A DNA stretch of 64,000 nt. Source: Escherichia coli. Its GTDB lineage: Bacteria; Pseudomonadota; Gammaproteobacteria; Enterobacterales; Enterobacteriaceae. Made by a program: the position numbers and the translations under genes. A model generated the notes under the pieces. That model was not told the origin of the DNA and did not search any database. It saw only the letters and a list, made by a program, of their open reading frames with translations. Of the stretch, positions 8,381-9,065 are shown in pieces (within the stretch, counting starts at the first letter, position 1; the number at the start of each line of letters is the position of its first letter). The DNA lies in NCBI RefSeq assembly GCF_024223415.1, contig NZ_CP100501.1; one strand, written 5' to 3'.

Positions 8381-9065
8381 CTAAACGATGAAATGAATGT
8401 GCTTTTTGCCGTGGTAAGGGGAGATCTCGATTTTGGTTTTCACCCGGAAAACGTCCCACAGCAGCGCTTCGGACAAAATCTCCTCCGGCGTCCCGCTGGC
8501 GAGGATCTGCCCCTGCTGCATCACGATCAGCGAATCGCAGAACATCGCGGCATGGTTAAGATCGTGAATGGCCACAATGCTGGTTACCGGCAGCTCGCTG
8601 ATCAACTGCATTAACTGCATCTGATGGTGTATATCCAGATGGTTGGTCGGCTCATCCAGCAGGATTTCGCTCGGGCTCTGCGCCAGCGCGCGGGCGATAT
8701 GCACCCGCTGCCGCTCGCCGCCGGAGAGGCTTAACCATCCCTGTTCGCTTTTCTCCAGCATAGCTACCCGCTGCAGCGCGGCGGCAATCGCTTCGTCATC
8801 CTGAGCGCTCCAGTTTGAGAACGGAGAGTGGTGGGGAATGCGTCCCAGGCGCACGACGTCGCGCACCCGCATATTGGCCTCGGTCATGCCGTGTTGCTCG
8901 ACGCAAGCCACGCGGCGGGCGAGCTGCTTTTTCGCCATCCGGGCGATATCCTGGCCGTCGAGGGTGACGCGACCTGCATCCGGGCGGCACCCGCAGCGAG
9001 ACATTATTGACGATGACCTTTTTGCCTGCCTTCCAGGTGATATTTTCAGCGCAAATACTCATCAC
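8381..9065 (-). pseudogene. eitC: ABC-transporter ATP-binding protein (EitC-like) disrupted by an internal deletion/frameshift that removes the Walker A region
   Basis: N-terminal 25 codons (MMSICAENITWKAGKKVIVNNVSLRV) in one frame at 9065..~8985; remainder (PDAGRVTLDGQDIAR...LSGGERQR...LLDEPT...) in another frame (8381..9004); no GxxGxGKST motif in either. Confidence 0.7.

Follow-up and report, generated by a model that had tools for sequence, protein, structure and literature searches.

Type II ATP-binding cassette (ABC) importers need two nucleotide-binding subunits, each of which gives the lysine of its Walker A motif to an ATP site. The eitABCD operon, a putative determinant of iron uptake, belongs to virulence plasmids of avian pathogenic and extraintestinal pathogenic Escherichia coli (APEC and ExPEC); it is present on pAPEC-O1-ColBM and also on pAPEC-O2-ColV and pChi7122-2, and its ATPase is covered by the NCBIfam model NF052485, named "siderophore ABC transporter ATP-binding protein EitC." In pAPEC-O1-ColBM (NC_009837.1) the genes are annotated as a substrate-binding protein, a FecCD permease, an ABC ATP-binding protein (762 nt, WP_000020503.1), and a major facilitator superfamily (MFS) transporter, and the annotated region is what has been published as the eitABCD operon (PMC3251573). 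The stretch analyzed here, referred to as the window, is 64,000 nt of E. coli contig NZ_CP100501.1 (assembly GCF_024223415.1). On its minus strand, a two-frame pattern at 8381..9062 was identified as eitC, the ATPase gene of this operon. The best explanation overall, which we hold with high confidence, is that eitC became a pseudogene through one 80-bp deletion flanked by short repeats. The initial annotation had described an eitC-like ABC ATPase that lost Walker A by a short internal deletion; the gene proved to be eitC itself, and the 80-bp deletion removed the motif GPNGCGKS.

The remnant (8381..9062, minus strand) retains 682 of 762 nt (89.5%) of a siderophore-type ABC transporter ATPase gene, as assigned by DNA alignment to pAPEC-O1-ColBM and by NF052485. 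The two-frame pattern was borne out both by the listing of open reading frames (ORFs) and by alignment to the intact pAPEC-O1-ColBM eitC. The upstream ORF, 8796..9065 (−), reads MMSICAENITWKAGKKVIVNNVSLRVPPG and then passes into out-of-frame residues; opened at either the GTG at 9065 or the ATG at 9062, it gives MSICAENITWKAGKKVIVNNVSLRVPPG, followed by an Arg/Pro-rich out-of-frame stretch and a stop at 8796..8798. Translation properly begins at the ATG at 9062, whose overlap with the stop codon of eitB forms TGATG, and not at the GTG at 9065, from which the extra "M" comes. Counted from this ATG, the N-terminal remnant (8796..9062, minus strand) has by translation 26 native codons (M1-P26) and 62 out-of-frame codons before the premature stop. 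The C-terminal remnant, a 207-aa ORF at 8381..9004 (−), begins with six out-of-frame residues (MSRCGC) and continues as native R53-V253 to the normal stop, its native part resuming at RPDAGRVTLDGQDIARMAKKQL. PF00005 is recorded for the 207-aa product, in which the Q-loop region, the signature LSGGE, Walker B (ILLDEP), and the H-loop (IHDL) are present and Walker A is absent. The Walker A pattern of PF00005-type ABC nucleotide-binding domains, GxxGxGK[ST], was found in neither remnant ORF.

The same division was seen with the EitC equivalog model NF052485 (251 positions; cut-off, 485 bits). The intact reference scored 518.7 bits, while the 207-aa ORF scored 408.2 (positions 53-251) and the 88-aa ORF 35.6 (positions 1-28), profile positions 29-52 being unmatched by the pieces in the window. 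On these sequence features the locus is an eitC pseudogene that encodes no EitC member protein, since its score lies below the cut-off and Walker A is lacking. Orthology is supported by DNA identity of at least 99% to 218 or more records per collection and by the conserved order and spacing of eitA-eitB-eitC-eitD. Megablast of 8300..9200 gave matches of at least 99% identity to about 220 records in PLSDB and about as many among complete E. coli genomes; almost all were E. coli conjugative plasmids, with some from Klebsiella, Shigella, Salmonella, and Citrobacter. Each of the matches listed consisted of two pieces, covering 981 bases of the record and 901 bases of the query.

Pairwise DNA alignment with the intact pAPEC-O1-ColBM gene gave a single gap in eitC of exactly 80 bp. 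In the parent gene, GCCGC occurs at gene nt 75-79 and 155-159, bounding the lost segment, and the missing bases are nt 75-154 or, equivalently, nt 80-159. Alignment to the parent places the junction at 8984..8988 (−), where the window keeps the sole copy of the repeat; two copies in the parent and one in the window correspond to a short-direct-repeat deletion. The repeats are embedded in an imperfect 12-mer, GyGCCGCsCGGA (GTGCCGCGCGGA and GCGCCGCCCGGA), identical at 10 of 12 positions. The junction had initially been placed near 8979..8984 at a CCCGGA repeat; the position was correct to within about 5 bases, and the repeat itself is GCCGC, with CCCGGA lying directly 3' of it. The sequence spanning the junction of this allele, designated delta-80, is GGGTGCCGCCCGGATG, and GCGGAGAAACGGTCGG...GGGCCTGC is specific to the intact allele and absent from delta-80. 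The protein loses R27-R52 of 253 residues (RGETVGLLGPNGCGKSSLLRVLAGLR), within which Walker A occupies residues 35-42 of intact EitC. A loss of roughly 24 residues had been described initially; the loss was confirmed, and its size is 26 residues plus 2 nt. As 80 is not a multiple of 3, the reading frame is shifted.

It is proposed that eitC became a pseudogene in one event, the loss of 80 bp between two direct repeats of GCCGC spaced 80 bp from each other, by either replication slippage or microhomology-mediated illegitimate recombination, a mechanism read from its sequence signature. When all possible deletions of 20 to 300 bp in the operon were enumerated, junction microhomology of at least 5 bp occurred in only 0.9% (P = 0.009). 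Since microhomology of this length is so rare, the GCCGC repeat was regarded as a meaningful signature of slippage or microhomology-mediated deletion. The deletion takes out a strand, the P-loop (GPNGCGKS), and the beginning of helix 1 (its first turns) in the nucleotide-binding domain. A ribosome that sets out from the native start meets the premature stop after 88 codons, and the remainder survives only as the 207-aa ORF without a P-loop. Hairpin-assisted slippage was dropped as a candidate, the DNA fold of the segment and its flanks having an energy of −25.4 kcal/mol (z = 0.53 versus shuffles).

With an 80-nt junction-centered query, the delta-80 junction was found in none of the 221 complete E. 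coli genome records and 217 PLSDB records matched. All 221 and all 217 carry the 80 bp, as two pieces spanning 160 bp, and the suggestion that intact homologues might also lack the segment therefore failed. An exact 36-mer across the junction had 0 matches in genome contigs and 0 in JGI metagenome contigs, and an exact protein look-up returned no record of the 88-aa N-terminal product. The exact 207-aa product was recorded once in the same kind of look-up, on the Logan contig SRR21431807_751731, which has the identical delta-80 junction. Because Logan contigs are built from reads by k-mers, reads spanning the junction must exist in SRR21431807. A further observation came from an ENA metagenome scaffold (L015), recovered with a 185-aa C-terminal piece as the query. 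This scaffold reads GGGTGCCGC[100 N]GCCGCCCGGATG, with the gap at 3416..3515, and both of its contigs end exactly at the GCCGC repeats. Such a break is the pattern expected of de Bruijn branching if deleted and intact alleles coexist, and a drop in coverage would not stop there. L015 also shares with the window the T at gene nt 381 (8762) and the C at 10144; this T was found in 0 of 222 E. coli and 0 of 218 PLSDB records.

The quality of the window assembly was considered in the same context. The window holds two 1,292-bp copies of an IS3-family insertion sequence (IS) that are 99.9% identical, and contiguity over 64 kb through such copies was taken to imply long-read support rather than an error of short-read gap joining. 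Over the 18.5-kb module that contains eit, only two multi-base indels and two 1-bp indels separate the window from its closest relative, and the idea that the assembly is generally ridden with indels was rejected for this reason. It was concluded that the deletion is a real, rare loss-of-function allele and not an artefact of assembly. Intact EitC, for comparison, is present on at least 1,000 contigs.

Several points weigh against this reading. The window was examined as assembled sequence, and the P-loop-coding stretch, with 72.5% GC, is clearly awkward for short-read assembly, so some of the lesions reported in the region could have technical causes. Many public "partial" EitC proteins at NCBI start at residues 31-64 (most of those read), and on one contig (L017) a gap of 10 N at 295..304 replaces gene nt 92-178. 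An ENA metagenome scaffold (L003; ERZ28634418, VALL22-1 scaffold_80277, 256..942, protein P0002) carries a Klebsiella-type eitC with an in-frame 75-bp deletion (...VGLLGP|DGQDIA...) by which most of Walker A is lost, its lysine included, and which has no clean microhomology; as the scaffold is short and metagenomic, this deletion may be technical. At two sites the Logan delta-80 contig (G381, C8063) departs from the window (T381, G8063), so the allele may have more than one origin. Finally, intact eitABCD gave no detectable iron-uptake phenotype on chrome azurol S (CAS) agar or in iron-limited growth (PMC3251573).

Some of these observations raise the alternative that the P-loop-coding segment of eitC is a recurrent site of inactivation, Eit import being switched off repeatedly through a deletion hotspot or through selection, for example, against a toxic siderophore mimic. 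The lesions known from other contigs were compared by haplotype, given in the order position 10144, gene nt 381, position 8063 (in eitD), and lesion. The references are A/G/G/intact and the window is C/T/G/delta-80. The Logan delta-80 contig is G/C/delta-80 at the last three, 10144 not being covered, and L015 is C/T/C/gap. Another Logan contig (L016, SRR21096945_276) is C/G/C with a different lesion, a 1-bp deletion at position 2911 corresponding to eitC nt 159 in GCCGCCCGG, which leaves ORFs of 85 and 185 aa; the lesions of L016 and of the Logan delta-80 contig are both supported by k-mers. Alleles at eitC nt 381 and at eitD 8063 are combined in all four ways among the sequences compared (the window, L001, L002, L006, L015, L016, and L017), and delta-80 is found on two of them. 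The mixed haplotypes would fit recurrence at the same repeats, recombination between eit modules, or a chimeric metagenome consensus. The breaks and lesions in gene nt 75-180 suggest that this GC-rich stretch is hard to assemble, prone to deletion, or both. Clustering within the 100 bp that encode the P-loop could reflect a hotspot or selection, but two confounders apply, namely, assembly problems related to GC content and a search that detects lesions at the 5' end only. Recurrent inactivation at this site was considered unlikely.

A second alternative is that eitC is intact in the source and that assembly or polishing, faced with low coverage of a GC-rich stretch, collapsed it where 5 bp happen to overlap. 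The base composition of the lost segment, the frequent breaks of public short-read assemblies there, and the lack of any complete record with the deletion are all consistent with this, and ends like those of L015 (...GTGCCGC and GCCGCCCGG...), if joined by a 5-bp overlap, would yield exactly the junction of the window. It is nonetheless quite unlikely. The junction is held by a k-mer-built Logan contig and is thus spanned by real reads, the L015 contigs end precisely at both repeats, which fits a mixture of alleles and not a drop in coverage, and the window crosses near-identical IS copies of 1.3 kb, which implies long reads. In addition, the only other multi-base indel of the 18.5-kb module was confirmed independently in five public assemblies.

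This other indel is an out-of-frame deletion of 44 bp at 15864|15865 (+), at codon 242 of a 712-aa AAA ATPase (WP_000350635.1). Alignment to the undeleted gene shows it split into ORFs at 15140..16066 and 15681..17234 (+). Unlike the eitC deletion, it has no microhomology at its junction, where a newly formed ATG begins an ORF of 456 aa. Of the 659 PLSDB records matched, the best all carry the undeleted 124-bp span and lack the 44-bp deletion, and protein look-ups gave no records for the 308-aa and 487-aa remnants. The junction-spanning 456-aa product was found in GCA_900482235.1 and in the Logan runs ERR3437215, SRR8689735, SRR19977205, and SRR19977217, and three of the four Logan runs are 100% identical to the window over 3.4 to 8.4 kb. 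The deletion is certainly real and marks the plasmid lineage of the window, which, as shown by the 456-aa product in public assemblies, is represented in public short-read data.

If the eitC deletion is real, as preferred here, the loss of the gene may still have been selected rather than neutral, Eit import being shut off in some niches owing to, e.g., a toxic ligand or a cost. This was suggested by the clustering of independent lesions in gene nt 75-182, namely, delta-80 on two single-nucleotide polymorphism (SNP) backgrounds, the 1-bp deletion of L016 at nt 159, and the in-frame 75-bp deletion of L003. The lesion contigs, however, are a handful against at least 1,000 intact ones, with 0 in about 220 complete records, and several are metagenome scaffolds of one project, for which artefacts are plausible. 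Part of the clustering is a matter of ascertainment, as C-terminal fragment queries detect only 5' lesions, and no phenotype is known. Selection for eitC loss was deemed very unlikely, and the event was inferred to be recent and neutral or nearly so.

The functional consequence of the pseudogene was deduced from ABC transporter biochemistry. The EitAB permease and binding protein would be without a cognate ATPase, and ATP-driven import by Eit would be abolished; the earlier statement that the uptake system is probably crippled is in this respect sound. Rescue by programmed frameshifting or read-through was rejected because the P-loop codons are physically gone, and neither frameshifting nor reinitiation can restore them. 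No obvious ribosome-binding site was seen ahead of the 207-aa ORF. Between the stop at 8796..8798 and the natural stop of eitC, 413 nt of the gene go untranslated, and the distance to the eitD GTG is 471 nt, a layout that may cause some polarity on eitD. A literature search found one functional study; it turned up neither a description of an eitC pseudogene nor a substrate demonstrated for Eit. That transport survives through a host type II importer ATPase (FecE, FepC, FhuC, or BtuD), which would bind EitB in place of EitC and drive it, is highly improbable. In its favor, EitC is related to FhuC, FecE, and HmuV, eitA, eitB, and eitD are perfectly intact, and in Staphylococcus aureus a single ATPase, FhuC, energizes several siderophore permeases that have no ATPase of their own. 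Against it, a neutral lesion of recent date would leave its neighbors just as intact, eitC is kept in almost every eit operon, no evidence of cross-talk was obtained, and, to our knowledge, every E. coli importer in this class has retained an ATPase of its own.

The remaining eit genes, all on the minus strand, were likewise compared with the reference. The permease, binding-protein, and MFS genes had been described as intact, and the EitA, EitB, and EitD proteins are indeed 100% identical to the reference and have no internal stops. The eitB gene (9062..10099) encodes a FecCD-family permease of 345 aa identical to WP_000110580.1, eitA (10099..11097) encodes a periplasmic substrate-binding protein of 332 aa with a synonymous SNP at 10144, and eitD (7137..8324) encodes an MdtH-like MFS transporter of 395 aa from the RefSeq GTG start, with an alternative ATG at 8369. 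EitA scored 696.1 against its equivalog model NF052484 (cut-off, 640) and matches periplasmic binding-protein families, and EitB matches the BtuC, FhuB, and FecCD models at E values of 1e-40 to 1e-85. PF01032 (FecCD) and PF01497 (Peripla_BP_2) are recorded on the identical neighbors in L015 and L016. A FecCD/BtuC-family permease and a Peripla_BP_2-type binding protein are thus encoded beside the ATPase gene, as in type II ABC importers. Over the 5.8 kb from 5700 to 11500, besides the 80-bp gap, only 10144 and 8762 differ from pAPEC-O1-ColBM, and both differences are synonymous. The latter is the G-to-T change at gene nt 381 (minus strand) within the dead eitC, seen in no complete record and elsewhere only in the metagenome scaffold L015. 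Given the identity of EitA, EitB, and EitD to the reference, eitC is the sole lesion of the operon and the event probably recent.

A candidate eit control region was located at 11153..11207 (−). It consists of TTGACA-17 nt-TATAAA (11207..11179) followed by a Fur-box-like sequence, GATAATAATGAGTTTCATT (11171..11153), located 53 nt upstream of the eitA ATG. In its best register the Fur-box-like site matches the consensus at 14 of 19 positions, and 7 of 300 random 363-nt windows equal it. The promoter scan passed over the TTGACA-17-TATAAA pair, whose −10 ends in A, and listed a weaker pair at 11193..11166. The promoter-like pair and putative Fur box are compatible with iron control, and, being statistically weak, are suggestive only.

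The first ~18.5 kb of the window form a ColV/ColBM-type virulence module that is 99.8% identical to pPSJ-42_1 and NZ_CP104540 and contains an IS66 fragment, a 1,165-aa autotransporter, an IS3-family element, eit, a resolvase, a CopG/RelE pair, IS91, the AAA ATPase, and VapBC. Identity of at least 99% to ColV/ColBM plasmids ends at a mosaic joint at ~18260..18490. The remainder of the window matches IncI/IncK2/Z-type conjugative backbones at 92 to 98% (parM, DUF1281, trbA, excA, and traW/X), e.g., pCh101, NZ_CP127318.1, from a chicken isolate. Three IS3-family copies, all carrying an ALIL frameshift pseudoknot (Rfam RF01497), were located at 5795..7086 (+), 44054..45345 (+), and 49183..50501 (−). 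Two of the copies are 99.9% identical, lie 37 kb apart in direct orientation, and flank eit and much of the backbone, making them a potential substrate for deletion or cointegrate resolution. The ORF of the IS91-family transposase at 13610..14902 (−) has an extra A at 14577 relative to pAPEC-O1-ColBM and is continuous over 430 aa. RefSeq annotates the pAPEC-O1-ColBM transposase as a two-piece coding sequence with a "programmed frameshift," and the 430-aa product is also called in two other contigs (L011 and L013). Rfam matches were obtained for the sok antitoxin RNA at 58936..59092 (+) (125.6 bits) and for AgrB at 55817..55904 (−) (51.8 bits), the latter in the stretch beside trbA where pCh101 annotates the DinQ-like type I toxin DqlB. 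These two matches are plasmid-maintenance type I toxin-antitoxin loci.

The main value of the eitC allele is as a caution for virulence typing by gene presence. In APEC and ExPEC genotyping, eit genes serve as virulence markers that are recorded by presence or absence (e.g., PMC10654095 and PMC3251573). By such scoring the plasmid would be positive for eitA, eitB, and eitD and also, at 89.5% coverage and near-100% identity, for eitC, despite having no ATPase. As a clean natural eitC knockout in which the other eit genes are identical to the reference, it is also a possible control for testing the Eit substrate. The locus shows nothing outside known biology: a known mechanism has turned a known gene into a rare loss-of-function allele, and knowledge of ABC importers or of deletion mechanisms is unchanged by it.

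The comparison with described systems can be made at three levels. Relative to the eit locus of pAPEC-O1-ColBM, the flanks are alike, with an IS3-family element and an autotransporter on one side and a resolvase on the other, and outside the deletion one synonymous base differs in eitC; the window gene is unlike its counterpart in that 80 bp are missing, Walker A is gone, the reading frame changes, and the product scores under the cut-off of its family. Among type II ABC importers like BtuCD, FhuCDB, and FecBCDE, the nearest solved ATPase is E. coli FhuC (PDB 7LB8), followed by HmuV (4G1U), and intact EitC aligns to FhuC over residues 5-234 (E = 3e-44). The segment lost in the window corresponds to FhuC AGKVTGLIGHNGSGKSTLLKMLGRH, which contains the GHNGSGKS P-loop, the preceding strand, and the following helix, i.e., the ATP-binding core. 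With respect to the event itself, the junction resembles the classic spontaneous short-direct-repeat deletions of E. coli, in which a perfect 5-bp repeat stands at both ends, one copy is kept, and tens of base pairs are lost, and it differs from that class in having no unusually stable hairpin bridging the eitC repeats.
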